NCBI GenBank assembly: GCA_001443005.1
Contig: LEKQ01000001.1
Coordinates: forward strand, 594,542-658,541
Direction: 5' to 3'
DNA length: 64,000 nucleotides
Source of the DNA: a bacterium GBS-1
GTDB lineage: Bacteria; Synergistota; GBS-1
The notes under the pieces are model-generated. The model saw only the letters and a program-made list of their open reading frames with translations. It was not told the origin of the DNA and ran no database searches. The position numbers were made by a program, and so were the translations under genes. Of the stretch, positions 8,813 to 25,362 are shown one piece after another. Within the stretch, counting starts at the first letter, position 1. The number at the start of each line of letters is the position of its first letter.

Positions 8813-8839
8813 GATACCCCACCTCACGTAAAGGCAGTC

Positions 8840-9703: not shown

Positions 9704-9708
9704 AACCT

Positions 9709-10860: not shown

Positions 10861-10870
10861 CTCTCTTCCC

Positions 10871-11410
10871 TCACCCTTTCTTGAATATATCAAAGGCAGC
10901 CCTTAAGGCTTTTAAGTTTAAATCCCTAGTAGCAGGAGGTACCCTATTAAGCATGGCAGCCTCGAGCGATTCCCTTTTTACTATTCCTGTTAATGAGACC
11001 AAAACCCCCAAAGCCACTATGTTCGCAGATAAAGGCTTACCTGTCTCCCTTATGGATATCTCTGTTATAGGAAGCTCGTATATCTCAACGTCAGAGCGAG
11101 GTTTGACCTCCTTGATATAAAGTGTATCAATGATGATTAATCCTCCCTCTTTGACGCTCTCACCGTATTTATCCAGCGCATCTTGAGTCATAGCAAGTAA
11201 TATATCTGGTCTTTCGATCTCTGGGTAGTTTATCTCCTCATCGCTTATGATGATCTCGGACCTACTTGCACCACCTCTTGCCTCGGGACCATAGGACTGA
11301 TTATGCGTAGCGTTCTTTCCCTCATAAATCACCGCAGCCTCCGCAAGGATAATCCCTGCGAGAACCAGACCTTGACCACCGTAACCGCTTAACACTATCT
11401 CCTTCCTCAT
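10871..11410 (-). CDS. 2-oxoacid:ferredoxin oxidoreductase gamma subunit
   Basis: 179 aa with the SGYGGQGLVLAG block typical of OFOR gamma subunits. It directly abuts the beta-subunit gene (0-nt gap). Confidence 0.88.
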   Translation of the reverse strand: MRKEIVLSGYGGQGLVLAGIILAEAAVIYEGKNATHNQSYGPEARGGASRSEIIISDEEINYPEIERPDILLAMTQDALDKYGESVKEGGLIIIDTLYIKEVKPRSDVEIYELPITEISIRETGKPLSANIVALGVLVSLTGIVKRESLEAAMLNRVPPATRDLNLKALRAAFDIFKKG

Positions 11411-12235
11411 TTAACCTTCCCCACCTTCAGCTAATTTTCGCCTTAACTCCTCATAAAGCTCCGTATACTCTCTCTTCTCCTTATTAACGAAGAGCTCGCC
11501 TATCAAAAACTTATCCTTCATCTCCTCGAGACTATACCTTTGAGCCTGTTGAACTAAAACAGCATGTTCCTTCTGCCACATCAGCATCTCATAAGGAGTT
11601 CTCATCCTATTTCTTCTCCCATAACCTACAGGACATTGAGAGACAACCTCAATGAAGCTAAAGCCCTTATGAGCGATGGCCTTAGCTATAAGATCAGCCG
11701 TTAACTGAATATGATAAACGGTGCTTCTTGCGATGAAGGTCGCTCCTGCCGCCTCAACAAGCTTGCATATGTCGAAGGATGGTTCAATGTTGCCGTAGGG
11801 AGCTGTTGTAGCATAGGTACCTTGAGGGCTTAAAGGGGAATACTGCCCACCTGTCATACCATATATACTGTTGTTTATAAGTATTGTAGTTATGTCTATG
11901 TTCCTTCTAGCAGCGTGGATCAGATGATTTCCCCCTATCGCCGCACCATCGCCGTCTCCCGTAATAACTATCACCTTCATATCGGGACGCATCAACTTAA
12001 AGCCTGTAGCGAAAGCTAAAGTCCTACCGTGAGTCGTTTGAATGGTGTTAAAGTCCACTATCACGTTGGTCCTTGCCGAACAGCCGATCCCGGTGAAAAG
12101 GACGATTTCATCCTTGCTCAACCCAAGCTTATCAACCGCCATGATCAAAGCCCTCACCACTGAACCGTTACCACAGCCCGGACACCATATATGAGGAAGC
12201 TTGCTTAACCTTAGATACTTCTTTATATCAAGCAT
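11411..12235 (-). CDS. 2-oxoacid:ferredoxin oxidoreductase beta (TPP-binding) subunit
   Basis: Blocks WCPGCGNG and ITGDGDGAAIGGNH (TPP/Mg site). The start ATG at 12235 lies within an ATGCTTGA overlap with the alpha stop, behind AAAGAGGTG. The ORF-track start at 12262 is probably too long. Confidence 0.88.
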   Translation of the reverse strand: MLDIKKYLRLSKLPHIWCPGCGNGSVVRALIMAVDKLGLSKDEIVLFTGIGCSARTNVIVDFNTIQTTHGRTLAFATGFKLMRPDMKVIVITGDGDGAAIGGNHLIHAARRNIDITTILINNSIYGMTGGQYSPLSPQGTYATTAPYGNIEPSFDICKLVEAAGATFIARSTVYHIQLTADLIAKAIAHKGFSFIEVVSQCPVGYGRRNRMRTPYEMLMWQKEHAVLVQQAQRYSLEEMKDKFLIGELFVNKEKREYTELYEELRRKLAEGGEG

Positions 12236-13373
12236 GGCTAAACACCTCTTTAATCGCATCAACTATCTCCCAAGGAGATATCATCTTGCCATCAACCCTA
12301 TTAATTCTAACAGCTTTCCTACAAATGCATCTTTCCACCTCTCCTACAAGCTGCCCCATGTTCATCTCAGGCACGACAACAACCTTAGCTCTTTTCGCAT
12401 ACCCCTCTACAACTTCGCCAGGGAAAGGCCAAAGGGTTTGTAACTGCAAAAGCCCAGCTCTTATCCCGCCCTCCCTCAGCATGTTAACTGCATCCTTGGC
12501 AGACCTCGCTGTACACCCATAGGCTACGATAAGCACGTCAGAATCCTCAACCCTATAGGTCTTATAATAAGTTATCTCCTTCCTATAAAACTCTATCTTC
12601 TTGTGAAGTCTCCTTATAAGCTCATTCGCCACCTTATGGTTATATGTTGCTGGGAAGCCCTCCTCATCATGTACATTACTAGTTACGTGATATCTGTACC
12701 CCTTACCGCGATAGGCGAAATCAGGAACACCGTCAGGCCCAGCGGCAAAAGGCTTATATTGCTCAGGCGGCAAGTTAGTAACTCTCCTATTAACTATCCT
12801 TATCCTGCTCGGATCTGGCAAAGTTACCTTCTCCCTTACGTGACCAACCACCGCATCGGAAAGAAGGATCACCGGATTTCTAATGAGCTCAGATATATTA
12901 AAGGCCTCTATAGTTAACTCAAAGGCCTCTTGAACCGTAGCAGGGCATAAGACAACTATAGGATGGTCTCCATGCGTTCCCCACCTCGCCTGCATGACAT
13001 CTCCCTGCGCAGGAAGGGTCGGTAAACCCGTGCTCGGCCCACCCCTTTGCACATCCACTATGACGCAAGGAATGTCAACTATTGTGGCATATCCCAAGTT
13101 CTCCTGCATTAAGGTAAATCCAGGACCACTCGTTGCAGTCATGGCCTTAAAACCAGCCATAGATGCTCCTATAACCGCAGCGATGCTAGCTATCTCATCC
13201 TCCATCTGAATGAATACCCCACCTACCTGAGGCATCCTAAGAGCCATCATCTCGGCTATCTCTGTAGCTGGAGTTATCGGATAACCCGCGAAGAACCTCA
13301 CTCCAGCTAAGATGGCTGCCTCAGCTATAGCCTCATTACCTTGCATGAATCGCACATCCTCCTTAAGGCTCAT
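12228..13373 (-). CDS. 2-oxoacid:ferredoxin oxidoreductase alpha subunit
   Basis: 381 aa with GNEAIAEAAILAGVRFFAGYPITPATEI and the general KorA/PorA layout. It overlaps the delta gene by 4 nt. Confidence 0.88.
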   Translation of the reverse strand: MSLKEDVRFMQGNEAIAEAAILAGVRFFAGYPITPATEIAEMMALRMPQVGGVFIQMEDEIASIAAVIGASMAGFKAMTATSGPGFTLMQENLGYATIVDIPCVIVDVQRGGPSTGLPTLPAQGDVMQARWGTHGDHPIVVLCPATVQEAFELTIEAFNISELIRNPVILLSDAVVGHVREKVTLPDPSRIRIVNRRVTNLPPEQYKPFAAGPDGVPDFAYRGKGYRYHVTSNVHDEEGFPATYNHKVANELIRRLHKKIEFYRKEITYYKTYRVEDSDVLIVAYGCTARSAKDAVNMLREGGIRAGLLQLQTLWPFPGEVVEGYAKRAKVVVVPEMNMGQLVGEVERCICRKAVRINRVDGKMISPWEIVDAIKEVFSHA

Positions 13374-13597
13374 TCCTCTTCCCCCTCCCGCACCTCAACA
13401 GCATAATCAGGACACCTGAGCTCACAGCTTCTACAACCTACACACATCTCCTCGCGCATAACCCTAACCTTACCATCGCTTGTAAACTCAAAAACCTTCT
13501 TAGGGCAAAACTCTACACATATACCACAAGACTTACACCACTTAGTATTCAGAACAACCTTAAACCTCTTAGTCAAGGCAATCACCCCTTCTTTCAA
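13370..13597 (-). CDS. 2-oxoacid:ferredoxin oxidoreductase delta subunit (2x[4Fe-4S] ferredoxin)
   Basis: 75 aa with two CxxCxxCxxxCP motifs, CKSCGICVEFCP and CVGCRSCELRCP. Confidence 0.85.
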   Translation of the reverse strand: MKEGVIALTKRFKVVLNTKWCKSCGICVEFCPKKVFEFTSDGKVRVMREEMCVGCRSCELRCPDYAVEVREGEEE

Positions 13598-13602
13598 AGC
13601 GC

Positions 13603-13803
13603 TTAGCCGCCCGACATGATATATGTAACTACTATCTCGTCACCATCCCTAACTATCCTCGAGCTATACTCCCTCCTGGGCAAGACATCCCTATTCAAGA
13701 ACACAGTCATATAAGAGATATCATAACCAAGCTTCTCTAAAAGCTCCCCCACGGTCATCTCACCTTCCAAATTAACTTCCCTATTATTCACCTTAACAAG
13801 CAT
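13603..13803 (-). CDS. ThiS/MoaD-family ubiquitin-like sulfur-carrier protein ending in Gly-Gly
   Basis: MLVKVNNREVNLEG...GDEIVVTYIMSGG* has the size, N-terminal pattern and C-terminal GG typical of ThiS/MoaD. The start is ambiguous: TTG at 13821, ATG at 13812 or ATG at 13803. I prefer 13803. It ends 5 nt upstream of the OFOR delta gene. Confidence 0.65.
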   Translation of the reverse strand: MLVKVNNREVNLEGEMTVGELLEKLGYDISYMTVFLNRDVLPRREYSSRIVRDGDEIVVTYIMSGG

Positions 13804-13825
13804 CTCCTCCATTTCCTCCAAATAA

Positions 13826-13863
13826 ATTATACTCAGTATACTGTCTACTTCCTAAATCATCAA
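13826..13863 (-). promoter_or_regulatory. candidate internal sigma-70 promoter upstream of the ThiS-like/OFOR genes
   Basis: Read on the minus strand: TTGATG (13863-13858), a 17-nt spacer, then TATACT (13840-13835), followed by a second TATAAT (13831-13826) and GGAGG. It lies in the 75-nt gap after dehydratase no. 2. Confidence 0.35.
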
Positions 13864-13896
13864 GGCCACCCTTAAAAGGTATCTTTGGGTTTTTCT

Positions 13897-15552
13897 TCAC
13901 TCCAGGGATCTTCTAACCGCTCCCTTTGACGCGCTCTCAACGAAAAGCCTATAATATCTCAGGTAGCTGTTTTCAGGTATAAAGGAGCGATTGACCTCCT
14001 GTACCTCTCCTTTTCTCCTTTTATATTCTTCCTCTGATATCAATAGGTCTACCCTCTTCCTCCCGAGGTCTATCCTTATAACATCACCATCCCTAACTAT
14101 GGAGAGCGGTCCTCCTGCCGCCGCCTCAGGGGAAACATAAGCTATAGAGATGCCGTAAGAAGCCCCGCTAAGCCTGCCATCGGTTATGAGTGCAACGTTC
14201 TTATATCTATTTATTATCTCAACACACCTATGAAGCTCCCTCATGCCCGGACCTCCACAAGGCCCCTCGTATCTTATGATGATAACCTCCCCATCCTTAA
14301 GGTCATTGCTTGATGCATACTCCATAAACTCATCCTCCGAGTTAAATACCCTAGCTACCCCTTCAAAGGGATCCTTCAAAACGTCCACCAGCGCAGACAC
14401 CTTAAGCAGGGCTCCATCAGGAGCAAGGTTTCCTCTCAAGACTTTTATAGCTCCACCCTTAGCTATGGGGTCGGAAACCGATCTTATGATTGACTTCAAA
14501 GGCCTGAATCCCTCACTCTTCCCAATGATATCCCTCCAGGTATCGTTAAGGACCGTCTTTCTATCAAGGTTAAGATAATCCTTTAGTTCTCTTATCAATG
14601 CAACCACTCCGCCAGAAAAATACAGATCTATAACGGTATTCTCGTCGCTATTGGGAGTAACTTGAGCAATCAGGGGAACACTCTCGCTTATCCTCTCAAA
14701 ATCCTCCATGCTTATCTCTATCCTTAGCTCATGAGCTATGGCAGGAATGTGAAGAACAGCGTTTAGAGAACCACCTATAGCCATAACTACAGCTATTGCA
14801 TCCTCAAAAGCTTCCCTCGTCATTATCGCCGAAGGTTTCAAGCCCATCTCTATTAAGCGAACAGCTTGCTCTCCGGTTAATCTAGCTAAGTTATATCTCT
14901 GACTTGTTCCCGCTGGAGTTAAAGCTGACCCTGGCAATCCCACACCCAAAACCTCAGCTACTATACACATGGTATTTGCCGTTCCCAAAAATGGGCAAAC
15001 ACCTGGACCAGGATAATACCTCTCCGTGATGTCAAGCAGCTCATCCTCGGAGACCTTACCCTCAAGAAAGCTCCTTCTCGCCATCTTGGACTCCTTAGGC
15101 TTGATATAGTTGCACATCGGTCCTGCTCCCAACCAAATAGAGGGAAGGTCTATCCTAGCCATAGCCATAAGCATACCAGGGACGATCTTGTCGCAGGAGG
15201 AGAGAAAAACCAAACCATCGAATATATCGTGTCCCTTCACCATAGATTCTATCGAATCAGCGATCAACTCCCTGCTTGGGAGGCTATATTTCATGCCCTT
15301 ATGCCCCTGAGCTATACCATCGCATATAGCTATCGTGTTGAACTCGATTGGAACTCCACCAGCCTTGTAAACCCCTTCTTTTACCTTCTCGGCCAGGTCT
15401 CTTAAAGGGACATGCCCAGGGACTATTTCGTTCCAAGAGTTGACTATACCTACTATGGGCTTGTTAAGATCCGCTCGGGAAAAACCACAAGAAATTAGAT
15501 GCCCCTTTATAAGCTGTCTAACGTAGTTCGGAAAAGCACTCAATCGGTTCAT
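13897..15552 (-). CDS. IlvD/Edd-family Fe-S dehydratase no. 2 (sugar-acid dehydratase candidate)
   Basis: 551 aa with [44 protein letters not shown] and TDGRLSGAS blocks. Confidence 0.88.
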   Translation of the reverse strand: MNRLSAFPNYVRQLIKGHLISCGFSRADLNKPIVGIVNSWNEIVPGHVPLRDLAEKVKEGVYKAGGVPIEFNTIAICDGIAQGHKGMKYSLPSRELIADSIESMVKGHDIFDGLVFLSSCDKIVPGMLMAMARIDLPSIWLGAGPMCNYIKPKESKMARRSFLEGKVSEDELLDITERYYPGPGVCPFLGTANTMCIVAEVLGVGLPGSALTPAGTSQRYNLARLTGEQAVRLIEMGLKPSAIMTREAFEDAIAVVMAIGGSLNAVLHIPAIAHELRIEISMEDFERISESVPLIAQVTPNSDENTVIDLYFSGGVVALIRELKDYLNLDRKTVLNDTWRDIIGKSEGFRPLKSIIRSVSDPIAKGGAIKVLRGNLAPDGALLKVSALVDVLKDPFEGVARVFNSEDEFMEYASSNDLKDGEVIIIRYEGPCGGPGMRELHRCVEIINRYKNVALITDGRLSGASYGISIAYVSPEAAAGGPLSIVRDGDVIRIDLGRKRVDLLISEEEYKRRKGEVQEVNRSFIPENSYLRYYRLFVESASKGAVRRSLE

Positions 15553-15588
15553 TCAAGATCAACTCCCTCCATGAAGCGAAAATGGCTT

Positions 15589-16479
15589 TCATAGCAAACC
15601 AAGCCTCCTTAAGCCCTCTTTTATCTTTTCCCTTACCTCTTCGCTCGCTGGTCTGAAGGGTTCTCTCGGATACATCTTTATCCCGCGTAGGTTAACCATG
15701 GTATAAGCTCCTACGGTAGTGGTATTAGCGAGCCTCATAAGGTCTCTAACGGCCATCACCCTATTGTGAACCTCTATCACCTTATCCTTAGGGGCACCGC
15801 TCATCACCACATCATAAAGCTCCTTACAAAGCTCTGGAAAAGCGTTACCCAACCCTGGAATAAAGGCTTTGATGCCCAAAGAGGACGCAGGAACAAACAG
15901 AGCCTCGGTTCCTAAAACCACATCGAAGCCTTCTTTTTCTACCTTTCTCTTGAAATCCGATAGGACCATCAAATCGAAGCTACTATCCTTAACACCATGC
16001 ACACCTATATCCGCCAACCTCTTAAGCAAGCCCACGCTAACGGCATACCCGACAGTTTTGGGATTGTTATAAACATAAACAGGCACATTAACTGCATCAA
16101 CGATTCTTTTGAAATAAAATAAGACATCCTCCTCGGCATGATGATAGTAGAAAGGAGGAACCGCTGAAACAGCATCAGCACCTATCTCCTCAGCGTGTTT
16201 AGCGAGCTCAACAGCATCCCTCGTGCTTATGCTTCCCACATGAACAATAACCGGGACCCTCCCCCCGACCTCCTTCACAATTATCTCCGCAACCCTCTTT
16301 CTCTCCTCGAGGCTAAGCAAAGGTCCGCAGCCATAGGTCCCAAGGATGAAAAGGCCATCCACCGTCCCTAAAAGGAAGCTCGTAAAATCCCTCAAAGCTC
16401 CCTCATCTATATCGCCGTTTGCATCGAAGGGAACGATCATCGGCGGAATTACCCCTCTCAACTGGGTGATACCCATCAA
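15589..16479 (-). CDS. DapA/NAL-superfamily class I aldolase or dehydratase (KD(P)G-aldolase-like)
   Basis: 296 aa. It has LGTYGCGPLLSLEERK where DapA has GTTGE; as I recall, archaeal KD(P)G aldolases read GTTGLGP.LS at this position. The Schiff-base Lys lies in HGVKDSS. Confidence 0.8.
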   Translation of the reverse strand: MMGITQLRGVIPPMIVPFDANGDIDEGALRDFTSFLLGTVDGLFILGTYGCGPLLSLEERKRVAEIIVKEVGGRVPVIVHVGSISTRDAVELAKHAEEIGADAVSAVPPFYYHHAEEDVLFYFKRIVDAVNVPVYVYNNPKTVGYAVSVGLLKRLADIGVHGVKDSSFDLMVLSDFKRKVEKEGFDVVLGTEALFVPASSLGIKAFIPGLGNAFPELCKELYDVVMSGAPKDKVIEVHNRVMAVRDLMRLANTTTVGAYTMVNLRGIKMYPREPFRPASEEVREKIKEGLRRLGLL

Positions 16480-16498
16480 AACACCCCCTTAAGGATCT

Positions 16499-18028
16499 TC
16501 ATCCCATTGTCTCTTGCAACTCGCTAATCTCCCTAAACTCATCCTGCAGCTTATGATAAATCTTCCAATATATCCTATATAACCTCTCGTATAAAACCCT
16601 TAGCCGCTCATCAGGCTCGATGCAATCGACTAACTGGACGGCCTTGGGAAGGATATCCTCATAGCTTTTTATATACCCAACGCCCCTCATGGCCATAACC
16701 GCTGCACCGAAAGAGGAAGCCTCCTCCATATTAACCCTAACTATTGATCTCCCAAGAACGCTTGATAGAACACCCGCCCAAACTTTAGACCTCATCAAAC
16801 CACCGGTTCCCCTAAGCTCTGTAGGGACGCTAACGACCTCTGAGACCGCCTCATATATACTCCTCATTCGAAAGGCTACACCCTCGATTATCGCCCTCGC
16901 TATATGTCTTCTATCATGGTGAAGCGCAAGACCGAACAAAATTCCTCTAACGTCAGCGTTCCAATAGGGGCCTCTCTCGCCGGTTAAAAAGGGCAAAAGC
17001 AAAAGCCCTCCTGCTCCTGGTTTGACCTCCTGAACCCATCTTTCGGCCTCCCTATAGAGGTCTAGGCCCATTTCTTTCAAATCCTCGTAAAAGCCATCGA
17101 TATACCAAGCCATCACAAGCCCAGCGTTGTTTATGGCGCACCCCACAAGCCAGGTATCCTCATCTAATATGTAACACCACGTTCTTCTTTTCTTATCAGT
17201 CATGGGACCCTTAACGGCCATTCTAACCGCACCGCTCGTTCCGATCATTATAGCCATCTTCCCTTCCCCGATTGAGTTGGAACCTAAAGACGATAAAGCA
17301 CCATCTCCAGCACCTATAACGATGGGAGTTCCCTCCCTTAAACTGGTTATGAGGCTAACTTCCTTAGAGACTTTTCCAACAACGGTTGAGGGGTAAACGG
17401 TCTCGCTCATTTTACCAATACTTATATCGAGGCTATCAAATATGGATTCCTCCCATTTTCTCTTATATATGTTAAGTAAACCGCTACCAGAGGCCACAGA
17501 GATATCGATGGCGAAGACCTTCGCTAAATTCCAAAGAACATACTCCTTTATGGTCATTATCCTATAAGCTTCATCAAGAGCTTGAGGGGTTTCATGCTTA
17601 AACCATATGAGCTTGGCGAGAGGATAGTTCACATGGAGGGGGCAACCTGTAATATCGTAAAGGTAATCAAACCTCTCTCGATAGCTCTTAAGCAGATCGT
17701 TAGACCTATTATCCCCCCAGATAATGAGATTGGTCTTTTTCCTCACATCAGAATCCACTAACATTATGCTGTGAAAAACGCTACTTAAACCTATGGCACC
17801 TATCTCATACTCACCGTTGGCAAGCTCCAAGGATTCCTTTATCGAGCTATATACAGCGGAGACAACCTCGTCAGGATCCTGCTCCACCCAACCAGGCTTA
17901 GGTTGAATAATCCTATAGTTTCTCTTAGCCATCGATATTAATCTTCCATCGCCATCGAAGATACAACATCTCGCCCCGGTTGTTCCTATATCAATACCTA
18001 TGAAAGCCGTCTTAGCCATCATAAACAC
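16499..18028 (-). CDS. FGGY-family carbohydrate kinase (gluconokinase/xylulokinase-like)
   Basis: 509 aa with IGIDIGTTGARC, GWVEQDP and VIGAGDGALSS blocks. The true start may be the fourth Met. Confidence 0.85.
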   Translation of the reverse strand: MFMMAKTAFIGIDIGTTGARCCIFDGDGRLISMAKRNYRIIQPKPGWVEQDPDEVVSAVYSSIKESLELANGEYEIGAIGLSSVFHSIMLVDSDVRKKTNLIIWGDNRSNDLLKSYRERFDYLYDITGCPLHVNYPLAKLIWFKHETPQALDEAYRIMTIKEYVLWNLAKVFAIDISVASGSGLLNIYKRKWEESIFDSLDISIGKMSETVYPSTVVGKVSKEVSLITSLREGTPIVIGAGDGALSSLGSNSIGEGKMAIMIGTSGAVRMAVKGPMTDKKRRTWCYILDEDTWLVGCAINNAGLVMAWYIDGFYEDLKEMGLDLYREAERWVQEVKPGAGGLLLLPFLTGERGPYWNADVRGILFGLALHHDRRHIARAIIEGVAFRMRSIYEAVSEVVSVPTELRGTGGLMRSKVWAGVLSSVLGRSIVRVNMEEASSFGAAVMAMRGVGYIKSYEDILPKAVQLVDCIEPDERLRVLYERLYRIYWKIYHKLQDEFREISELQETMG

Positions 18029-18043
18029 CTCAAGCTTTAAGAA

Positions 18044-18802
18044 TCAAACTGCCGTCCAGCCTCCGTCCACGAAGATTATCTGACCTGTGATATAAGAAGC
18101 CTCCTTAGAGGCCAAAAAAACCGCAACCCCTTTAAGGTCCTCCAAAGATCCAAACCTACCCAAGGGTATCCTTTTTATCATGCTTTCAAGCCTTTCTCTA
18201 TCGCTGAAGACCGCCTCGGTCATCCTGGTCTTGTACCATCCTGGCGCAATAGCGTTCACCCTTATGCCATACGCCCCCCACTCCTTAGCGAGCGCCTTAG
18301 TTAATGAGCCAACACCGCCCTTTGAAGCAGCATAGGCACATATGTTAGGAACGGTCACCTCAACCACGGTCAAGGAGCAAACGTTGATTATTGAGGGGGA
18401 ATCTGACCTCCTCAGTAATCTAAAAGCCTCCCTACACACGTAAAAGGTCCCAAAGAGATTAACCTCGATTATCTCCCTAAAATCATCGATTGGAAACTCC
18501 TCAGCGGGATACCTCCTATTGATGCCTGCAGCGTTCACAACGACATCAAGCCTACCATAGTTTCTCTCAATATTATCCATTATATTCTTCACTTCATCGT
18601 ATTTCGAGACATCGCATCTTAAGCCCGAAGCTTTAACACCATAGCCTTGACTTATCCTTAGGGCAGTCTCCTTTGCCTCCTCTATGGTCCTGCTAACTAT
18701 CAATACATCGCTTCCCGCCTCGGCGAGCCCCTCAGCGAGAGCCATACCTAATCCCCTTGACCCGCCAGTTACAAGAGAGAGCCTTCCTCTAAGGTTAAAC
18801 AT
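18044..18802 (-). CDS. SDR-family oxidoreductase (gluconate 5-dehydrogenase / KduD-like)
   Basis: 252 aa with TGGSRGLG and the catalytic YAASKGG motif. The N-terminus closely resembles what I recall of the Thermotoga gluconate 5-dehydrogenase. Confidence 0.82.
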   Translation of the reverse strand: MFNLRGRLSLVTGGSRGLGMALAEGLAEAGSDVLIVSRTIEEAKETALRISQGYGVKASGLRCDVSKYDEVKNIMDNIERNYGRLDVVVNAAGINRRYPAEEFPIDDFREIIEVNLFGTFYVCREAFRLLRRSDSPSIINVCSLTVVEVTVPNICAYAASKGGVGSLTKALAKEWGAYGIRVNAIAPGWYKTRMTEAVFSDRERLESMIKRIPLGRFGSLEDLKGVAVFLASKEASYITGQIIFVDGGWTAV

Positions 18803-20276
18803 TTGCCCCCGTTATCCTCCTTCTCCCAAGAATCATTAGCACTATCAATACCCAAAGAATTATACAAATAGGCCTAGTAAAGAAAGGAGTTATGCTTTCA
18901 TTTAACGTCAAAGCCCTTCTTAGGTTCTCATCAGCCATCCTACCCAAAATCAACCCCAGGGTAAATGGAGCGAGAGGATAGCCGTGATTTCTCAGTACGT
19001 AACCTACTAAACCGAAAAGCAAGGTTACGTAGACGTCAAAAATGGAGTGATTCACAGCGTAGGCACCTATAACGCAGAGAGTTATTACTATAGGCATTAA
19101 GATGTCCTTCTTCACCAGCAACACCTTTATAAGTACGTTGCTTATAAGAAGCCCAAAGATAAGAAGCATAAAGTTAGCCAAAACCTGCATAGCAACGTAA
19201 TCATAGAAAAATTGCGGGGACTCAATGAAGATAAGCGGACCTGGCCTTATCCCGTGCAACAATATGCCTCCCAATAAAACGGCAGCAGCTCCGCTACCAG
19301 GTATGCCAAGAGCTATCATCGGAATCGAAGCTCCACCTATGCATGCGTTATTCGCTACCTCACAAGCGATAACCCCTTCCTTGCTCCCCTTACCTATCAT
19401 CTCCCTTTCCACACCGAGATTTTTGACAGCACCATAGCTTACCCAAGCGGCCACATCTTCACCAACGCCAGGAATAACACCGATCAGAATACCTATTATC
19501 GCAGACCTTATGGTCGTCTTCCAGTATCTAAAAACCTCTACTAAGGGAATACTAACCCTGAGCTTCTTAGGATCAACCACTAACTCCCCCTGTTTCGGCT
19601 CCCTCATCACGCAAAAAACCTCGGTTAAACCGAAAAGGCCTATCAAGGCAGGTATCAGAGATATGCCACTCATCAAATTTAGGCTGCCGAAGGTGAACCT
19701 TGGATAGGTGGTCATGTTATCCATACCTATCATAGCGGTCATAAGACCGAGAAAGCCCGTTATCCACCCCTTTAATTGCAACTCACCCATAGACAAGCTT
19801 CCACATATCATCACTCCCATTATGGTCAAAACGAAGAACTCCCAGGAACCAAACTTCAGGGCTATCTTAGCAAGCAAAGGGGTAGAAACAGCCAAGGCTA
19901 AGACGCCTATTAAACCACCCCAGAAGGAAGCTAAACGAGCAAGCCCTAAAGCTTCCCCAGCCATCCCATTCTTAGCTAATTCGTATCCATCTATAGCGGT
20001 AGCTGCAGCTGAAGGGGTACCAGGGATGTTAAGCAAAATGGCACTATTGGATCCTCCATATATACCACCGCAATAGAGAGCTACGAGCATCGGTATGGCA
20101 TATCGAGGGTCCAGACCATAGGTTATACCACTTAAGAGGGCTATACCCATCGTAGCTGTAAGACCAGGTAAAGCCCCGATTATTACCCCAAGGACAGAAG
20201 ATAGTGACATCAAAGATAGCAGCTTTAAGTCAAGAAGACCAACGAAACCATCAAAAAGCCTTAATAAGCTTTCCAC
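18795..20276 (-). CDS. tctA: tripartite tricarboxylate transporter (TTT) large permease TctA, copy 1
   Basis: 493-aa polytopic membrane protein with GALPGLTATMGIALL and GIPGSGAAAVLLG blocks. Its 3' end overlaps the SDR start by 8 nt. Confidence 0.88.
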   Translation of the reverse strand: MESLLRLFDGFVGLLDLKLLSLMSLSSVLGVIIGALPGLTATMGIALLSGITYGLDPRYAIPMLVALYCGGIYGGSNSAILLNIPGTPSAAATAIDGYELAKNGMAGEALGLARLASFWGGLIGVLALAVSTPLLAKIALKFGSWEFFVLTIMGVMICGSLSMGELQLKGWITGFLGLMTAMIGMDNMTTYPRFTFGSLNLMSGISLIPALIGLFGLTEVFCVMREPKQGELVVDPKKLRVSIPLVEVFRYWKTTIRSAIIGILIGVIPGVGEDVAAWVSYGAVKNLGVEREMIGKGSKEGVIACEVANNACIGGASIPMIALGIPGSGAAAVLLGGILLHGIRPGPLIFIESPQFFYDYVAMQVLANFMLLIFGLLISNVLIKVLLVKKDILMPIVITLCVIGAYAVNHSIFDVYVTLLFGLVGYVLRNHGYPLAPFTLGLILGRMADENLRRALTLNESITPFFTRPICIILWVLIVLMILGRRRITGANV

Positions 20277-20300
20277 CTCGATCCCTCCTCAAAGCAGAAC

Positions 20301-20783
20301 TTAGGGCAACCTCACTCCAAGTAAATGTCCAAATGAGTACATCAAGCTCAAACTCACCAAAAGAGCGATCCCGATCGCGACGTGTAGCTTGACACTTTTA
20401 AAGTAAAGATAGGACCCAACTAGATAGAGAAAAGTCGCCAAAGTATAGGGTATCTTCCCCAAAAGAGCAACATAGGCGACCGTTAAAGCTATAAAGACGA
20501 CGAGCCTTTGTGTCTTGAGTCTCTCCTCCCTGCTTCCCTCATTTCTCCCCTTTGACTCCGAGAGGCTCCAACCTTTAAGGTTTCTTTTAAAGATAAACAA
20601 GAGGTAAAACATAAGCGCAGCTGAAAGAACCATAAGAATTGCCGATAAAACTGCGGGGGTAAGACCTGGGGAGTCATGAGGGTCTCCAGTAGGCATCTTT
20701 AGGGATTCAAACAAGCCATAAGCACCGATCAGGAAAACGAAAAGGGCAATCGCAAACTCCCACCACCATCTCTTCCTATCCAT
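20301..20783 (-). CDS. tctB: TTT small membrane subunit TctB, copy 1
   Basis: 160 aa with about 4 hydrophobic helices, positioned between tctC and tctA. Confidence 0.7.
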   Translation of the reverse strand: MDRKRWWWEFAIALFVFLIGAYGLFESLKMPTGDPHDSPGLTPAVLSAILMVLSAALMFYLLFIFKRNLKGWSLSESKGRNEGSREERLKTQRLVVFIALTVAYVALLGKIPYTLATFLYLVGSYLYFKSVKLHVAIGIALLVSLSLMYSFGHLLGVRLP

Positions 20784-20813
20784 CCTGAACTAAATCGCCT
20801 CCCCCTTAAAACA

Positions 20814-20845
20814 GTGCATGGCAGGAGGAAGAACCTGCCATGCAC
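20814..20845 (-). terminator. intercistronic GC-rich stem-loop between tctC1 and tctB1 (partial terminator or mRNA stabiliser)
   Basis: A perfect 12-bp stem, GTGCATGGCAGG / CCTGCCATGCAC, with an 8-nt loop, 24 nt after the tctC1 stop. On the minus strand it is followed by TGTTTTAAG. Confidence 0.5.
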
Positions 20846-20869
20846 CCATCTCTATCTAAGGGTCCAAAC

Positions 20870-21877
20870 TTACTCCGGCTTAGGAATCTTGAAATCCTCA
20901 GGAGATTTCTTCGCAAGCTTCAACTCATGTAAGAGCCAGCTAACCAAAGATGTCTCTCTCTTAGCGTACTCCTCAGACTTCTGCCTATCATAGCCAAGAT
21001 AAACCATGGCCTGCTTCTGTACGAACTCCTTGAACTTAGGAGACTGAACGGCCTTAGCGTATGCCTTATCTATCGCATCTACAACCTCTTGAGGAACATC
21101 CCTAGGAACTGCTATGCCCCACCAACCACCGAAAGGTAGATATTTCTTAATATCAGGAGCCCACTTCGCCACAGTGGGAACCTTACCTACGCCCTCTATC
21201 TCAATATCCTCGTCATTGAACGTCGCAAGGATCCTAAGCTGGCCACCCTTTATCAAATCTATGGCCTCCATTAAGCCTGGAATTCCCGCTTTCGTCTCCC
21301 CTGCCACAGCCGCGGCAGCAGCCGCACGACCGCTGGGATAAACCACTATCTTAAAGTCCCCTCCAACAGATTTCTTAAGCATCTCCAAAGCTATATGCCA
21401 CCCGTTGGCTATACCAGAGTTAGCAAGGGTTAAGTCCTTCCCCATCTCCTTCATAGCCTTAATGAAATCATCCATGGTCTTTATGGGAGAATCGGGCTTA
21501 ACGCATATGGTCGCTACACCAGCAGCAGCGATCCACATATGAAAGTCCTTATAAGAGAAGGGACCAAGGTCCATCACCTGATACATCCTTATGTTATCTG
21601 AGAGTCCTAACCAAATATAACCATCATGAGGCTGACCCATGACGTAAGCTGTCGCAACAGCTCCAGTGGCCCCAGGCATATTTATGACATTAATAGGAAC
21701 CCCTAGGATCTGCTGCATCTCTGCCGCCAATGCTCTATTGACCTGGTCTGTTGCTCCACCCGCACCGAACTGAACTATAACGGTTATAGGTCTCGTTGGA
21801 TAGGCAGCCCATCCCATACCTGCGAAGACACCCACGAACAAGCCCAACACCGCCAACATAACAAGAGCCTTCTTCAT
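20870..21877 (-). CDS. tctC: TTT periplasmic solute-binding protein TctC (Bug family), copy 1
   Basis: 335 aa with a signal peptide (MKKALVMLAVLGLFVGVFAGMGWA), the FGAGGATD and MPGATGAVA blocks, and the tctCBA gene order. Confidence 0.85.
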   Translation of the reverse strand: MKKALVMLAVLGLFVGVFAGMGWAAYPTRPITVIVQFGAGGATDQVNRALAAEMQQILGVPINVINMPGATGAVATAYVMGQPHDGYIWLGLSDNIRMYQVMDLGPFSYKDFHMWIAAAGVATICVKPDSPIKTMDDFIKAMKEMGKDLTLANSGIANGWHIALEMLKKSVGGDFKIVVYPSGRAAAAAAVAGETKAGIPGLMEAIDLIKGGQLRILATFNDEDIEIEGVGKVPTVAKWAPDIKKYLPFGGWWGIAVPRDVPQEVVDAIDKAYAKAVQSPKFKEFVQKQAMVYLGYDRQKSEEYAKRETSLVSWLLHELKLAKKSPEDFKIPKPE

Positions 21878-21901
21878 CTTTCTTCCCCCCTTTAGATTAA
21901 T

Positions 21902-21919
21902 TTCTTAAAGCTTTAAGAA
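21902..21919. promoter_or_regulatory. perfect 18-bp palindrome TTCTTAAAGCTTTAAGAA upstream of tctC1 (operator candidate)
   Basis: The sequence is its own reverse complement. It lies 24 nt upstream of the tctC1 ATG, just upstream of the AGGGGGGA Shine-Dalgarno sequence. It shares its half-sites with the palindrome at 26351-26366. Confidence 0.4.
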
Positions 21920-21954
21920 CCTCTTCCTTTTCACATCACCTCCCTCTACGGCTT

Positions 21955-23109
21955 TTACATGGCAGATCTGCATATCTGGATCAGATCTTCCAAGGTAGGA
22001 GTTCTCGGATTAATGGGTATCCCAACGTTACTCATCGCCTCACGACATATATCTTCAATGGCATCCTCTTTGACGCCTACCTCTCTTAGCCCTGCCGGTA
22101 TACCCACATCTCTACACAAAGCCTTTACCGCCTCAACCGCCCTACGTGCAGCCTGAAGCTCCGTAAGACCGGAAACGCTCTCTCCCAACGCTTCAGCTAT
22201 CTTAGCAAACTTAGAAAGGTTGCCAATGAGATTAAACTCCATACCATAGGGTAATAGGATAGCGTTTATCACACCATGAGGCACGTCGAAGTACCCACCC
22301 ATAACAGCTGTGATAGCGTGAATAACGCCCAAGCGCGTATTTGCGAAAGCCAAGGCTGCCATCGTGCTTCCTAAGAGCATGTTATAGCGAGCTTCAATAT
22401 TATCCCCCTTAGCATAGGCAGCCCTCAGATACTTTCCAATAAGATAGATAGCGTGATAGGCAAGCGACTCCGATATAGGCTCAGTTACAACGTTCGTGAA
22501 GGACTCTATAGCGTGAGTTAGAGCATCTAAACCAGTAGCAGCGGTCACGCTTGGCGGCATACTCAAGGTTAGAAGGGGGTCGCAAACCGCAATGTGAGGA
22601 GCGATCTTAGGATTACCTATGCCCATCTTAACTTTCTTCTTGGTATCCTTTATCACCGTCACCCAAGTTATCTCGCTACCTGTGCCAGCCGTAGTAGGAA
22701 CGGCAATGAGAGGAAGTATCCTGTTCTTCGGAGGGTTCTTCCAAAAGTAGGCTATCTCCCCCTCGTTAGTTAAAAGTAGACCGATCGCCTTAGCGGTGTC
22801 TATCGAGCTTCCTCCCCCAATCGCCAATAGGAGATCACACCCAAACTCCCGAGCAACTTTAACTCCCTCCTCGACTATCTCAACCGTCGGATTAGGCTCA
22901 ACTTTAGAGAAAACCTCAGTTCTAAAGCCAGCAATATCCAACTTGGCCTTTATGCCATTTACGATGTTCGTGCACATCAATCCCGGATCCGTAACTATTA
23001 AGACGCTCTTTCCGCCCAGTTCGTTAACCCTGTCTACTATTTTTTCGGCCTCTCCTATCCCAAAATACAACTTAGTCGGAATCTGCCAAACGAAGGGCTT
23101 AACAAACAT
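21955..23109 (-). CDS. iron-containing (group III) alcohol dehydrogenase
   Basis: 384 aa with GGGSSIDTAKAIG, the metal-binding His region LDALTHAIES and VPHGVINA. Confidence 0.88.
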   Translation of the reverse strand: MFVKPFVWQIPTKLYFGIGEAEKIVDRVNELGGKSVLIVTDPGLMCTNIVNGIKAKLDIAGFRTEVFSKVEPNPTVEIVEEGVKVAREFGCDLLLAIGGGSSIDTAKAIGLLLTNEGEIAYFWKNPPKNRILPLIAVPTTAGTGSEITWVTVIKDTKKKVKMGIGNPKIAPHIAVCDPLLTLSMPPSVTAATGLDALTHAIESFTNVVTEPISESLAYHAIYLIGKYLRAAYAKGDNIEARYNMLLGSTMAALAFANTRLGVIHAITAVMGGYFDVPHGVINAILLPYGMEFNLIGNLSKFAKIAEALGESVSGLTELQAARRAVEAVKALCRDVGIPAGLREVGVKEDAIEDICREAMSNVGIPINPRTPTLEDLIQICRSAM

Positions 23110-23209
23110 GCTATCCCCCCTCTATACTTTATTATTGTGATAATATCATCCATCCAAACAAATCTATCCTTATCCGCCAACGGAACAACATTCGCTATTT
23201 CTAAATGAT

Positions 23210-23238
23210 ATCTTAACATAAGCACCCGACAGCGTCAA
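23210..23238 (-). promoter_or_regulatory. candidate sigma-70 promoter for the Fe-ADH-led supra-operon
   Basis: Minus strand: TTGACG (23238-23233), a 17-nt spacer, then TAAGAT (23215-23210). This would give a 5' UTR of about 100 nt before the adh ATG at 23109. Confidence 0.4.
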
Positions 23239-23299
23239 GCCATGTTCGTATACCCAGTATGCTTGGATTAATGGTAATACCTCAACTATTTCGCATATA

Positions 23300-23320
23300 G
23301 GAGAATCTTTTAGATTCTCT
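23300..23320 (-). terminator. weak stem-loop after tctA2
   Basis: An 8-bp stem, GAGAATCT/AGATTCTC, with a 3-nt loop, beginning 5 nt after the tctA2 stop. No clear U-tract follows. Confidence 0.3.
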
Positions 23321-23325
23321 CTATC

Positions 23326-24795: not shown

Positions 24796-24802
24796 CTACA
24801 CT

Positions 24803-25349: not shown

Positions 25350-25362
25350 AAAGAGAATACCT

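Follow-up and report, generated by a model that had tools for sequence, protein, structure and literature searches.

Which compound do the eight genes between positions 23109 and 13897 of this DNA serve, and by which route? The question was approached at the sequence level, from gene families, gene order and its conservation, catalytic residues and clade-specific features, across the whole stretch analyzed (64 kb, hereafter the window). The genes are as follows.

21955..23109, minus strand: Fe-ADH, an iron-containing (group III) alcohol dehydrogenase, first gene of the set (Pfam Fe-ADH and ADH_Fe_C)
20870..21877, minus strand: TctC1, TctC-family periplasmic solute-binding protein of a tripartite tricarboxylate transporter (TTT) (Pfam PF03401, 91.7 bits)
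20301..20783, minus strand: TctB, small membrane subunit (Pfam PF07331, 61.5 bits)
18795..20276, minus strand: TctA, large membrane subunit (Pfam PF01970, 474 bits)
18044..18802, minus strand: SDR, probable UxaD orthologue (about 73% identity to PDB 1vl8)
16499..18028, minus strand: FGGY-family kinase of the GntK-like branch, 509 aa (Pfam FGGY_N and FGGY_C)
15589..16479, minus strand: DapA/NAL-superfamily class-I aldolase of an uncharacterized bacterial subfamily (G[TS]YGxGP) (Pfam DHDPS)
13897..15552, minus strand: IlvD/Edd-superfamily dehydratase of the T1 clade (Pfam ILVD_EDD_N and C)

By ORF positions, the eight genes are co-directional and almost abutting, in the order Fe-ADH, TctC, TctB, TctA, SDR, FGGY kinase, DapA-family protein and IlvD/Edd-family dehydratase. 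Because the intergenic gaps range from -8 to 86 nt, with the TctA and SDR genes overlapping by 8 nt, the set has the appearance of an operon. The order and families given in the preliminary description agreed with the ORFs and with Pfam (8/8 proteins; E-values 1e-16 to 1e-142), and the motifs quoted there (TGGSRGLG, YAASK and GTYGCGP) were all found in the translations. An identical gene order occurs in two related lineages, L087 and L091, whose DapA-family, kinase and dehydratase proteins share about 66-83% identity with those of the window; the arrangement is therefore not a product of chance. In L091, Fe-ADH again comes first, after a divergent gene. Entner-Doudoroff (ED)-type chemistry consists of dehydration to a 2-keto-3-deoxy acid followed by class-I aldol cleavage. 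These data support a module for sugar-acid uptake and catabolism that uses ED-type chemistry and non-canonical families. There is about an even chance that all eight belong to a single operon that breaks down a C6 sugar acid by an ED-type pathway passing through a phosphorylated intermediate.

The SDR has a close link to a characterized enzyme. It matched Thermotoga maritima TM0441 (PDB 1vl8) with 409 bits over 251 aa, and its translation contains VTGGSRGLG and YAASKGG. Its best NCBIfam match was the gluconate 5-DH subfamily, below the cut-off (250 against 279). PMC5673643 and PMC3750489 credit TM0441 (UxaD) with mannonate oxidoreductase activity, both citing Rodionova 2012, and a uxaD-gntE-gntK neighborhood is reported there as well. 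Because it is about 73% identical to UxaD, the window SDR is probably a hexonate 5-dehydrogenase (fructuronate/5-ketohexonate reductase). Thus, the earlier comparison with gluconate 5-dehydrogenase was apt for the type of reaction, but the closest characterized relative is a mannonate/fructuronate oxidoreductase. Since that relative is UxaD, a substrate of the fructuronate/mannonate (L-gulonate or hexuronate) series is no less strongly indicated than 5-ketogluconate.

The best NCBIfam matches of Fe-ADH were all below cut-off (GbsB, 367 against 550; FucO, 353 against 523), and its best PDB matches were methanol DH 8zrl and FucO. L005 repeats the Fe-ADH/transporter/SDR/FGGY arrangement. Its Fe-ADH/ABC transporter/SDR run is also present in L006, which encodes a TctC1 homologue 62% identical to that of the window and has no FGGY gene within the stretch read. 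We propose, as a guess, that Fe-ADH is an L-hexonate 5-dehydrogenase or an aldehyde reductase. The L-hexonate 5-dehydrogenases known to us are Zn-ADHs, whereas the window enzyme is an Fe-ADH, which counts against the scheme favored below.

The FGGY kinase scored best with the gntK_FGGY model, ahead of XylB (290 against a cut-off of 380) and GlpK (203); its best PDB match was gluconate kinase 3gbt, and its homologues carry the name gluconokinase. The gntK_FGGY score lies well under the equivalog cut-off (389 against 648), which also counts against the favored scheme. A Pseudothermotoga thermarum homologue (57% identical) follows a 2HADH-TRAP-SDR run, with neither a dehydratase nor an aldolase gene nearby; its substrate there is therefore the SDR/2HADH product. 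We propose that the window kinase is a hexonate (gluconate/mannonate) 6-kinase or, alternatively, a KDG kinase.

The DapA-family protein scored below cut-off, and nearly equally, with the NanA (156 bits), DapA (151 bits) and archaeal KDG aldolase (150 bits) models. It retains the Schiff-base Lys164 and Tyr137, but DHDPS Arg138 is replaced by Thr142 and GTTGE by GTYGC. The GTYGCGP of its LGTYGCGPLL segment aligns with GTTGLGP of the Sulfolobus solfataricus KD(P)G aldolase (PDB 1w37), as the preliminary description had suggested, and GxGP is conserved as G[TS]YGxGP throughout the bacterial subfamily. An AF2 model (pLDDT 95.7) has a generic DHDPS/NAL fold. Among 83 loci of the subfamily (±10 kb read), 57 have a DGOK-family (DgoK) kinase, directly adjacent to the aldolase in those loci whose genes were inspected one by one; RpiR regulators (HexR-type) are found in 21 and IclR regulators (KdgR-type) in 16. 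A 2HADH is present in 36-42 of 80-83 loci, depending on the method. These findings support a protein whose motif and genomic partners are like those of KD(P)G aldolases and which is not DHDPS, the identity that the preliminary description had named as fatal to its own reading. We propose that it acts as a KDPG (or KDPGal/KDG) aldolase in place of Eda.

The dehydratase (IlvD1) belongs to a large clade, here named T1. It scored below cut-off with both the ilvD (581 against 618) and Edd (313 against 708) models, and four other T1 members also missed the IlvD equivalog cut-off. IlvD2 (349-2094), in the same window, is 46% identical to it and passes the IlvD cut-offs. All of the top homologues (120/120) have a CDK-to-GTAN spacing of 70 residues. 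Every T1 sequence (51/51) has an active-site lid of 43 aa, equal to that of Edd 2gp4, whereas the lid is 49-55 aa in 49/50 DHAD-type sequences. T1 sequences carry basic residues in the lid where DHADs are hydrophobic: R159 in 51/51 (Arg in Edd; Leu, Tyr or Pro in DHADs), K156 in 49/51 and H18 in 49/50 (Leu in DHADs). Evans 2024 described His/Lys/Arg in the EDD substrate pocket at sites that are hydrophobic in DHAD, and a DHAD lid 6-7 residues longer. T1 shares its lid length with Edd, but its scaffold is DHAD-like; the EDD domain-1 motif LAHGFAA is absent from T1, and the domain-2 motif is only partial. The far higher score with IlvD than with Edd models argues against a 6-phosphohexonate role, and the non-Edd members of the superfamily characterized to date all act, to our knowledge, on non-phosphorylated acids. 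The data support a diverged paralogue that is not of the housekeeping DHAD type, and we propose that it is a 6-phosphohexonate (Edd-like) or hexonate dehydratase.

The genomic contexts of T1 were counted over 24 non-redundant groups. Eda is present in 12 and the DapA subfamily, which occupies the place of Eda, in 5; FGGY kinases are found in 7 and 2HADH in 12, with the 2HADH gene overlapping or abutting that of T1 in L092, L093 and L005. Elsewhere, T1 has as neighbors the KDPG aldolase Eda and, with it, a complete PTS or else a GntK-like kinase. In 9/24 groups, a complete PTS (EIIA-EIIB-EIIC-GAT, LevR-type regulator) and Eda occur without a kinase, and the dehydratase there must therefore receive a phosphorylated substrate. 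The order in L092 is RpiR-FGGY-T1-2HADH-SDR-ZnADH-Eda, the window's own parts list except that Eda replaces the DapA-type aldolase.

Several genes lie downstream of the dehydratase.

13603..13821, minus strand: ThiS/MoaD-like small protein, co-conserved (ORF; PF02597 in L001, L087 and L091)
10871..13597, minus strand: 2-oxoacid:ferredoxin oxidoreductase (OFOR), four subunits (Pfam POR_N, TPP_enzyme_C and POR)
13370..13597, minus strand: OFOR delta (ferredoxin ORF)
12228..13373, minus strand: OFOR alpha (passes the generic PRK08659 model)
11411..12262, minus strand: OFOR beta
10871..11410, minus strand: OFOR gamma
8840..10893, minus strand: SucC/SucD-like ADP-forming acyl-CoA ligase, co-conserved (Pfam ATP-grasp_2, Ligase_CoA and CoA_binding)
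7811..8827, minus strand: D-2-hydroxyacid dehydrogenase, 2HADH (Pfam 2-Hacid_dh)
5892..7775, minus strand: tungsten-type aldehyde:ferredoxin oxidoreductase (AOR), co-conserved (Pfam AFOR_N and AFOR_C)

The OFOR, with its subunits in delta-alpha-beta-gamma order, is conserved in L087 and L091. After PRK08659 for alpha, its next-best matches were 2-oxoglutarate synthase alpha and beta, and the SucCD-like ligase (SucC PRK00696, 358 against 370) follows directly. The OFOR is therefore no obvious pyruvate sink, and the suggested flow of pyruvate to it is doubtful; despite its co-conservation it is an uncertain member of the pathway, as is the ligase. The 2HADH, of a family that recurs beside T1 dehydratases and the aldolase subfamily, is possibly a 2-keto(phospho)aldonate reductase.

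In the scheme that we favor, for and against which the balance is close to level, a 5-keto- or L-hexonate would be converted through D-hexonate, 6-phosphohexonate and KDPG to pyruvate and GAP. TctC1B1A1 would import an L-hexonate or 5-keto-hexonate (e.g., L-gulonate/fructuronate or L-idonate/5-ketogluconate), and Fe-ADH would oxidize the L-hexonate at C5. The UxaD-like SDR would reduce the 5-keto acid to a D-hexonate (mannonate or gluconate), as its identity to the characterized enzyme suggests, and the GntK-like kinase, judged by family and context, would yield the 6-phosphohexonate. Lid and genomic context are consistent with T1 acting as a functional Edd of DHAD-branch descent that would remove water to give KDPG. 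The DapA-type class-I aldolase would then cleave KDPG to pyruvate and glyceraldehyde-3-phosphate in Eda's stead, a non-orthologous displacement to which the conserved catalytic residues and kinase partners point.

The evidence favors this phosphorylated route over a non-phosphorylative one; of the non- or semi-phosphorylative ED-like branch first suggested, the ED-like character and unusual parts stand, and the non-phosphorylative variant has become less likely. In a semi-phosphorylative ED pathway, which we consider unlikely though the strongest competitor, T1 would dehydrate free hexonate (gluconate/mannonate) to KDG, the FGGY protein would be a novel KDG kinase in the slot held elsewhere by DGOK or PfkB kinases, and the aldolase would cleave KDPG. 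Clostridia are established by classical enzymology to use gluconate dehydratase and KDG kinase in such a route, and CA_C3604, an IlvD-type gene adjoining GntP, is the predicted clostridial gluconate dehydratase. GntP adjoins T1 in three groups (L094, L096 and L112) and a PfkB kinase, with KDG/KDGal kinase as best match, in two (L093 and L094), which weighs against the favored scheme; the FGGY gene also holds exactly the position next to the aldolase that DGOK occupies at most other loci, and HMM scores place T1 nearer DHAD and aldonate dehydratases than Edd. However, the PTS-Eda groups need a phospho-substrate, the P. thermarum kinase has no dehydratase or aldolase nearby, and L093 also fits a kgu-like reading in which PfkB is 2-ketogluconate kinase and 2HADH is KguD, leading to 6-phosphogluconate. 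We know of no FGGY-family KDG kinase, which this route would require. Less probable still is a non-phosphorylative or branched ED pathway from hexonate through KDG to pyruvate and glyceraldehyde, with the AOR oxidizing the aldehyde and the kinase on a parallel branch. The AOR is co-conserved in three lineages, and AOR genes directly adjoin members of the aldolase subfamily at no fewer than seven further loci (L006, L032, L046, L063, L070, L076 and L089), so the proposed routing of aldehyde to the AOR is possible and it could oxidize free aldehyde if cleavage were partly non-phosphorylative; the favored scheme does not need this routing and does not account for the AOR, a point against that scheme. 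Archaeal KD(P)G aldolases, which share GxGP with the window enzyme, accept both KDG and KDPG. Against this route, no glycerate kinase is encoded in the 64-kb window, the adjoining OFOR is 2-oxoglutarate-type with SucCD rather than evidently a pyruvate enzyme, DgoK-family kinases accompany the aldolase subfamily at most loci, where RpiR/IclR regulators also occur, and T1 is paired with Eda, which requires KDPG, and with a PTS or GntK-like kinase.

Only a slight chance attaches to a pentonate or aldarate pathway of the Dahms or Weimberg kind, in which the dehydratase and DapA-type enzyme would act as Escherichia coli yjhG/yjhH, giving either pyruvate and glycolaldehyde (which the FucO-like Fe-ADH would reduce or AOR oxidize) or, with a DapA-type dehydratase, 2-oxoglutarate semialdehyde, which AOR, OFOR and SucCD would process via 2-oxoglutarate. 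Adjacent IlvD- and DapA-family genes, as here, are the signature of yagE/yagF and yjhH/yjhG; in sequence and in fold alike, YagE ranks with the top PDB matches of the DapA-family protein, the usual TTT cargo is di- or tricarboxylates, and the downstream AOR, OFOR and SucCD, with a GarD/UxaA-like dehydratase, would suit the semialdehyde route. Yet the KdgD model scored only 78 bits, L-KDA dehydratase was not found among the PDB matches, T1 contexts are of C6 and phospho-type (GntP, GntK-like, PTS, Eda), the aldolase subfamily's partner kinases cannot act on aldarates, and the SDR and kinase would have no role. It is very improbable that an ordinary DHAD and a true dihydrodipicolinate synthase lie beside the transporter by accident: T1 homologues are publicly annotated as dihydroxy-acid dehydratase and IlvD is the top-scoring model, but both proteins fall below curated equivalog cut-offs, the DapA-family protein has lost Arg138 and GTTGE, the T1 lid is unlike that of DHADs, the second IlvD passes the cut-offs, and the catabolic neighbors are conserved across phyla.

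The eight genes named in the preliminary description were all found on the minus strand, and the family of each was confirmed by Pfam:

21955-23109, minus strand, Fe-ADH
20870-21877, minus strand, TctC (PF03401)
20301-20783, minus strand, TctB (PF07331)
18795-20276, minus strand, TctA (PF01970)
18044-18802, minus strand, SDR
16499-18028, minus strand, FGGY kinase of 509 aa (FGGY_N and FGGY_C)
15589-16479, minus strand, DapA-family protein
13897-15552, minus strand, IlvD/Edd-family dehydratase (IlvD1)

The motifs quoted in that description (TGGSRGLG, YAASK and GTYGCGP) were likewise all present in the translations of this module. Intergenic gaps ranged from -8 to 86 nt, and the tripartite tricarboxylate transporter (TTT) set was complete, with PF03401, PF07331 and PF01970 each above its gathering score. 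The gene order recurred in two related lineages: locus L087, whose DapA-family protein is 83% identical to that of the window, and locus L091, a Synergistetes MAG whose kinase is 69% identical. Because a divergent gene precedes Fe-ADH in L091, the module was taken to start with Fe-ADH. Promoter and terminator scans of positions 12000-30500 gave no excess over shuffled expectation, and therefore no operon boundaries were drawn from them.

An enrichment metagenome from Great Boiling Spring (77 °C) contained identical copies of window proteins, the closest named relatives were Synergistota MAGs, and the distal half of the window carries housekeeping genes. The window is chromosomal DNA of a thermophile. 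The minus strand carries nearly all of its genes. Strongly negative GC skew (-0.15 to -0.33) extends over the whole window except at about 34-36 kb and 40-42 kb, two stretches with plus-strand genes.

None of the catalytic proteins of the module reached a curated NCBIfam equivalog cut-off, so that the enzymes were assigned from closer comparisons. IlvD1 is 46% identical to IlvD2, the second IlvD-family protein of the window (349-2094). It scored below the cut-offs of the IlvD models (581.5 against 618.15 for TIGR00110, 584 against 644 for PRK00911), of the 6-phosphogluconate dehydratase (Edd) model TIGR01196 (313 against 708) and of the YjhG/YagF model (234 against 808), whereas IlvD2 passed the IlvD cut-offs with 775 and 789. 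Members of the IlvD1-containing clade, designated T1, from loci L092, L057 and L097 also fell below the IlvD cut-offs. The spacing from CDK to GTAN was 70 residues in 120 of the 120 best database matches of IlvD1, as against 76 in IlvD2, and a SK.[AL]R..[FY] motif was found in 111 of these 120. The top matches by themselves give T1 at least 120 representatives at 90% identity. Residues C77, D78, C120, D121, K122, C186, E439 and S462 were invariant within it, and all Fe-S, Mg (including the CDK lysine) and catalytic-Ser positions were retained. Its sequences mark T1 as a coherent clade with a wide distribution among anaerobic and facultative Firmicutes, Synergistota and bacteria of the human gut, and the annotation that it carries is in all cases dihydroxy-acid dehydratase (DHAD).

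For a comparison of the active-site lid, 51 T1 sequences were aligned with 50 sequences of DHAD type taken from the same loci. The lid was 43 residues long in all 51 T1 sequences, the same length as in Shewanella Edd (PDB 2gp4), as compared with 49-55 residues in 49 of the 50 DHAD-type sequences and 50 in L-arabinonate dehydratase. The T1 lid, KESKMARRSFLEGK, aligned without gaps to the 2gp4 lid, KEKARIRQQFAQGK; K, E, R, F and GK matched between the two, but with respect to the basic Edd lid pattern KxK(V/I)RQLYAxxK the equivalent of K190 was one residue off. R159 was invariant in T1 (Arg in Edd; Leu, Tyr or Pro in DHADs), K156 was present in 49 of 51 sequences, and H18 in 49 of 50 (Leu in DHADs). 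The Edd domain-1 motif LAHGFAAx4(D/E)Kx3 was absent: IlvD1 reads IKGHLISCG, in which the His alone is analogous, with no insertion. Evans et al. (2024) reported that EDD and DHAD specificities do not overlap, and attributed specificity to a His in "domain 1" and to a Lys and an Arg in the shorter, basic "domain 2" of EDD; the DHAD equivalents are hydrophobic, and the DHAD lid is variable and 6-7 residues longer. Given the lid length and the H18/K156/R159 pattern, T1 can be described as a DHAD-like backbone with an Edd-like pocket.

A role for IlvD1 as the housekeeping DHAD was rejected, since it fails the IlvD cut-offs, its lid is unlike those of DHADs, and IlvD2 passes. The last of these arguments carries less weight than it may seem to, because the neighbours of IlvD2 look catabolic and are found again in metagenome locus L125. 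T1 could plausibly be a second, so far unrecognised lineage of dehydratases with Edd function on 6-phosphohexonates, derived from the DHAD branch through acquisition of an Edd-like short basic lid; we advance this tentatively, at somewhat below an even chance.

The genomic contexts of T1 were counted in 24 non-redundant groups. Within 6 kb of T1, KDPG aldolase (Eda) was encoded in 12 of the 24 and the DapA-type aldolase in 5; an EIIC-GAT-family PTS was present in 9, a GntK-like FGGY kinase in 7, RpiR in 5, GntP in 3 and PfkB in 2. T1 loci of gut metagenomes contained a LevR-like activator, Eda, EIIA, EIIB, EIIC and T1, and no kinase was found in the 8-kb flanks of these loci. Since a PTS delivers a phosphorylated sugar acid, T1 there would have to take a phosphorylated substrate and pass KDPG to Eda. 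The PTS and Eda contexts are suggestive of dehydration of 6-phosphogluconate to KDPG. Compact loci of this kind, combining a sigma-54/LevR-type activator, Eda, a complete EIIA-EIIB-EIIC (GAT family) PTS and T1, were seen in L097-L102, L105-L108, L114 and L118, which are human-gut and other metagenome contigs. The arrangement looks like a PTS-fed Entner-Doudoroff (ED) shunt for a sugar acid, and a literature search for a PTS/IlvD-like/Eda system found no description.

Other T1 loci contained further combinations of enzymes. Thermanaerosceptrum fracticalcis (L092) carries a TRAP transporter and the order RpiR-FGGY-T1-2HADH-SDR-ZnADH-Eda, which is the parts list of the module but with Eda in place of the DapA-type aldolase and Zn-ADH in place of Fe-ADH. 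The order in Paenibacillus forsythiae, LacI-?-PfkB-MFS-T1-2HADH-Eda, can be read as a kgu-like 2-ketogluconate route, in which a kinase is followed by a 2-keto-6-phosphogluconate reductase and the dehydratase, or as a gluconate dehydratase with a KDG kinase. Loci L057 and L065 share the order 2HADH-LarA-FGGY-DapA'-T1-DapA-DGOK with an RpiR regulator; 2HADH denotes a D-2-hydroxyacid dehydrogenase and DGOK a DgoK-like kinase.

The DapA-family protein scored about equally, at 150-156 bits, with each of the NanA, DapA and archaeal KD(P)G-aldolase models and passed none of their cut-offs (150.7 against 206 for DapA TIGR00674; 149.8 against 390 for the archaeal model NF040954). The Arg138 that defines dihydrodipicolinate synthase (DHDPS) by binding aspartate semialdehyde (E. 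coli numbering) is replaced by Thr142, and GTTGE by GTYGC; Schiff-base Lys164 and catalytic Tyr137 are kept, and are invariant in the DapA-type subfamily. From these residues, the protein is not a DHDPS. The suggestion that GTYGCGP resembles the archaeal GTTGLGP was borne out by alignment with the Sulfolobus solfataricus KD(P)G aldolase (PDB 1w37, 25% identity), which placed the GxGP motif, K164 (Lys155) and Y137 (Tyr130) in register. Sulfolobus Tyr132 corresponded to Asn139, Arg237 to a variable position and Arg106 to His113/114, a mapping that is unreliable at 25% identity; the subfamily has invariant arginines of its own, R245 and R265. The AF2 model (pLDDT 95.7) is a TIM barrel with a TM score of about 0.9 equally to DHDPS, NAL and YagE, and a fold search with it gave no discrimination among subfamilies.

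The DapA-type bacterial subfamily is large, with 1087 cluster representatives at E≤1e-20, and the closest aldolase match among GTDB species representatives was 54%. Its neighbours were counted in two ways. By tblastn with reference proteins within ±10 kb of 83 loci, a DGOK-family kinase was found at 57 and a 2HADH at 42, and where loci were read gene by gene the kinase directly adjoins the aldolase. An unbiased clustering of every ORF at 80 genome loci recovered DGOK at 49, 2HADH at 36, a PF04199 "cyclase" at 27, TctC at 25 and TctA at 22, RpiR/SIS at 21, IclR at 16 and PfkB kinases at 12. An aldolase acting on KD(P)G/KD(P)Gal would be expected to have just such neighbours, a kinase and regulators of the HexR and KdgR types. 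A recurrent cluster of anaerobes, seen in L003, L014, L021, L035, L049 and many other loci and apparently uncharacterised, combines the subfamily aldolase with the DGOK kinase, a 2HADH, the PF04199 "cyclase", a FAH-family hydrolase, a TTT or ABC transporter and an RpiR or IclR regulator; a dehydratase is usually absent from it.

Fructuronate reduction and 5-ketogluconate reduction are one C5 reaction on C2-epimers. The SDR of the module matched PDB 1vl8 (T. maritima TM0441) over its full length with 409 bits and about 73% identity; its TGxxxGxG and YxxxK motifs are present, and the subfamily model PRK08213 gave 250 against a cut-off of 279. The 1vl8 entry bears the name "gluconate 5-dehydrogenase", but the protein in it is UxaD, for which passages of PMC5673643 and PMC3750489 that cite Rodionova 2012 report mannonate oxidoreductase activity and the gene setting uxaE-uxaD-gntE-gntK-gnd. 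The earlier designation of the SDR as gluconate-5-dehydrogenase-like is therefore right as to the kind of reaction, given the shared C5 chemistry, but the nearest characterised relative indicates the mannonate series. The top family of the kinase was the FGGY-type gluconokinase GntK (TIGR01314, 388.8 against 648.55), and its top PDB match was the Lactobacillus gluconate kinase 3gbt. In Pseudothermotoga thermarum, a 57%-identical homologue follows 2HADH-TRAP-SDR with neither dehydratase nor aldolase nearby, which argues for a dehydrogenase product as the substrate of the kinase.

All of these contexts are most simply accommodated by a phosphorylative ED pathway assembled from non-orthologous parts, a reading that we hold to be about equally balanced between right and wrong. 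The TTT system would import an L-hexonate or 5-keto-hexonate; Fe-ADH and the UxaD-like SDR would invert C5 via the 5-keto acid, as IdnD and IdnO do on L-idonate; and the FGGY kinase would form a 6-phosphohexonate. T1 would dehydrate the latter to KDPG, which 6-phosphomannonate and 6-phosphogluconate would both yield because dehydration erases C2 stereochemistry, and the DapA-type aldolase would release pyruvate and glyceraldehyde-3-phosphate (GAP). The main rival, a reversed order with the dehydratase acting before the kinase as in the classical clostridial modified ED pathway, is unlikely: the clostridial gluconate dehydratase is predicted to be the product of an IlvD-type gene beside GntP (for CA_C3604 the link of gene to enzyme is itself a prediction only), but the order demands an FGGY-type KDG kinase, of which none is known, and leaves the PTS contexts of T1 unexplained. 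The clostridial semi-phosphorylative pathway shares with the module an IlvD-family paralogue in a gluconate context, an anaerobic setting and an end at a KDPG aldolase, whereas its kinase is KdgK (PfkB) and its aldolase Eda.

The preliminary description had suggested a non- or semi-phosphorylative ED-like branch. For its non-phosphorylative version, an aldehyde:ferredoxin oxidoreductase (AOR) is indeed present and co-conserved, and AOR genes adjoin the DapA-type aldolase subfamily elsewhere; however, no glycerate kinase family was found among the annotated ORFs of the 64-kb window, a kinase is embedded in the operon, and both key enzymes accompany kinases and Eda, so that this version is improbable. 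The archaeal branched ED pathway of Sulfolobus and Thermoproteus likewise combines nearby AOR-type aldehyde oxidation with a DapA/NAL class-I aldolase that has GxxGxGP, the Schiff-base Lys and the catalytic Tyr. In contrast to the archaeal enzyme, the module aldolase, 25% identical to it, does not clearly conserve the phosphate-binding Arg106 and Arg237; the archaeal gluconate dehydratase belongs to the enolase superfamily and the archaeal KDG kinase is of PfkB type. A Dahms/Weimberg-type route is suggested by the yjhG/yjhH-like gene pair, a FucO-like ADH and the downstream AOR, 2-oxoglutarate-type 2-oxoacid:ferredoxin oxidoreductase (OFOR), SucCD and GarD-like dehydratase, yet it would leave the SDR and kinase idle and is very improbable. 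In E. coli yjhG-yjhH/yagF-yagE (Dahms-type xylonate dehydratase and KDX aldolase), an IlvD/Edd dehydratase also adjoins a DapA-family aldolase, but the T1 lid and contexts are of the C6/phospho type and the module has an embedded kinase.

As a phosphorylative ED pathway, the module shares its parts list with the E. coli GntII/L-idonate system (IdnT, IdnD, IdnO, IdnK) plus Edd-Eda: transporter, L-hexonate 5-dehydrogenase, 5-keto-hexonate reductase (SDR), hexonate kinase, dehydratase, and an aldolase yielding pyruvate and GAP. The module differs in using TTT rather than GntP, Fe-ADH rather than Zn-ADH, an FGGY-type rather than a small P-loop kinase (GntK/IdnK), a DHAD-branch dehydratase rather than Edd and a DapA/NAL-type aldolase rather than Eda, and in having all genes in one operon. 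The T. maritima galacturonate branch uxaE-uxaD-gntE-gntK-gnd, as outlined in passages citing Rodionova 2012, resembles the module in that the UxaD-like SDR (about 73% identity) is followed by a GntK-like FGGY kinase, with a common logic of fructuronate to mannonate to phosphorylated hexonate. The module lacks UxaE, Gnd and a GntE-type epimerase beside the kinase; dehydratase and aldolase come next instead, giving an ED-type exit rather than one through the pentose-phosphate pathway.

The pathway logic is already known and the enzyme set is new: its dehydratase is DHAD-derived and has an Edd-like lid, a bacterial aldolase of DapA type takes the position of Eda, and the presumed substrate of the TTT transporter is a monocarboxylic sugar acid. 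Surveys of glycolytic strategies score ED by canonical edd and conclude that it is rare in anaerobes and Firmicutes, and DHAD-like proteins reportedly cannot replace Edd, according to recent work. If the substrate of T1 is 6-phosphogluconate, or even free gluconate, annotations are wrong in many genomes, human-gut metagenome contigs among them, and the present picture of where ED-type sugar-acid catabolism occurs has to be revised. With Edd function in T1, and Eda or a DapA-type KDPG aldolase beside it, complete ED pathways would be much commoner in anaerobes than edd-based surveys indicate, and estimates of ED frequency in anaerobes and gut bacteria would change. The window also offers a thermophilic set of entirely non-canonical, putative ED enzymes, including a putative bacterial DapA-type KDPG aldolase of interest for cell-free sugar-acid cascades, which now rely on Sulfolobus enzymes. 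For the host organism, the module would be an ordinary catabolic operon.

Past the module lies a block encoding a ThiS-like protein, a ferredoxin, OFOR alpha, beta and gamma subunits, a SucCD-like ligase, a 2HADH and the AOR, conserved in three lineages that are closely related to one another. The best specific matches of the OFOR were 2-oxoglutarate synthase subunits, and SucC fell just below cut-off. Its identification as pyruvate:ferredoxin oxidoreductase was rejected, the PorA/PorB models scoring far below the 2-oxoglutarate ones. The proposal that pyruvate from the aldolase passes to this OFOR therefore lost its support, and the OFOR and the ligase more likely form a unit converting 2-oxoglutarate via succinyl-CoA to succinate. 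In each of the three lineages the gene of the ThiS/MoaD-like protein (72 aa; 13603-13821, minus strand) is flanked by the dehydratase gene on one side and the ferredoxin/OFOR genes on the other, with the tungsten AOR near.

The distal module (349-5876, minus strand) encodes a split UxaA/GarD-like dehydratase (SAF, 5568-5876; GD_AH, 4414-5571), an Ldh_2-family dehydrogenase, a LarA-like nickel-pincer racemase and IlvD2. Assignment of the LarA homologue as a GntE hexonate epimerase was rejected, as its top match is malate racemase and the hexonate-epimerase model gave only 51 bits. The UxaA-LarA-IlvD2-like set recurs with a TRAP transporter in L125, and IlvD2 may be catabolic despite passing the IlvD cut-offs.

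Upstream of the module, a second complete TTT (TctC2B2A2) occupies 23326-26337 on the minus strand; among TTT genes next to DapA-subfamily/DGOK clusters of Spirochaetes, Synergistota and Clostridia, those related to it (up to 65% identity) are the most frequent. It is preceded by a 157-aa ORF without family match (26524-26997, minus strand) and adjoined by two further genes:

26994-28232, minus strand, UPF0261 protein
28248-29096, minus strand, PEP-hydrolase-like/TBST TIM-barrel protein

This pair is a split form of plant Tm-1. The same pair occurs in Thermanaerosceptrum (L092, 13325-17385) directly after the FGGY-T1-2HADH-SDR-ADH-Eda operon, accompanied there by a sigma-54 activator with a PEP-hydrolase-like sensor domain. 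The first catalytic activity of UPF0261 was reported in 2025 for MarK, an ATP-dependent kinase of aromatic ketones, and the UPF0261/TIM-barrel pair could be another kinase tied to the sugar-acid regulon.
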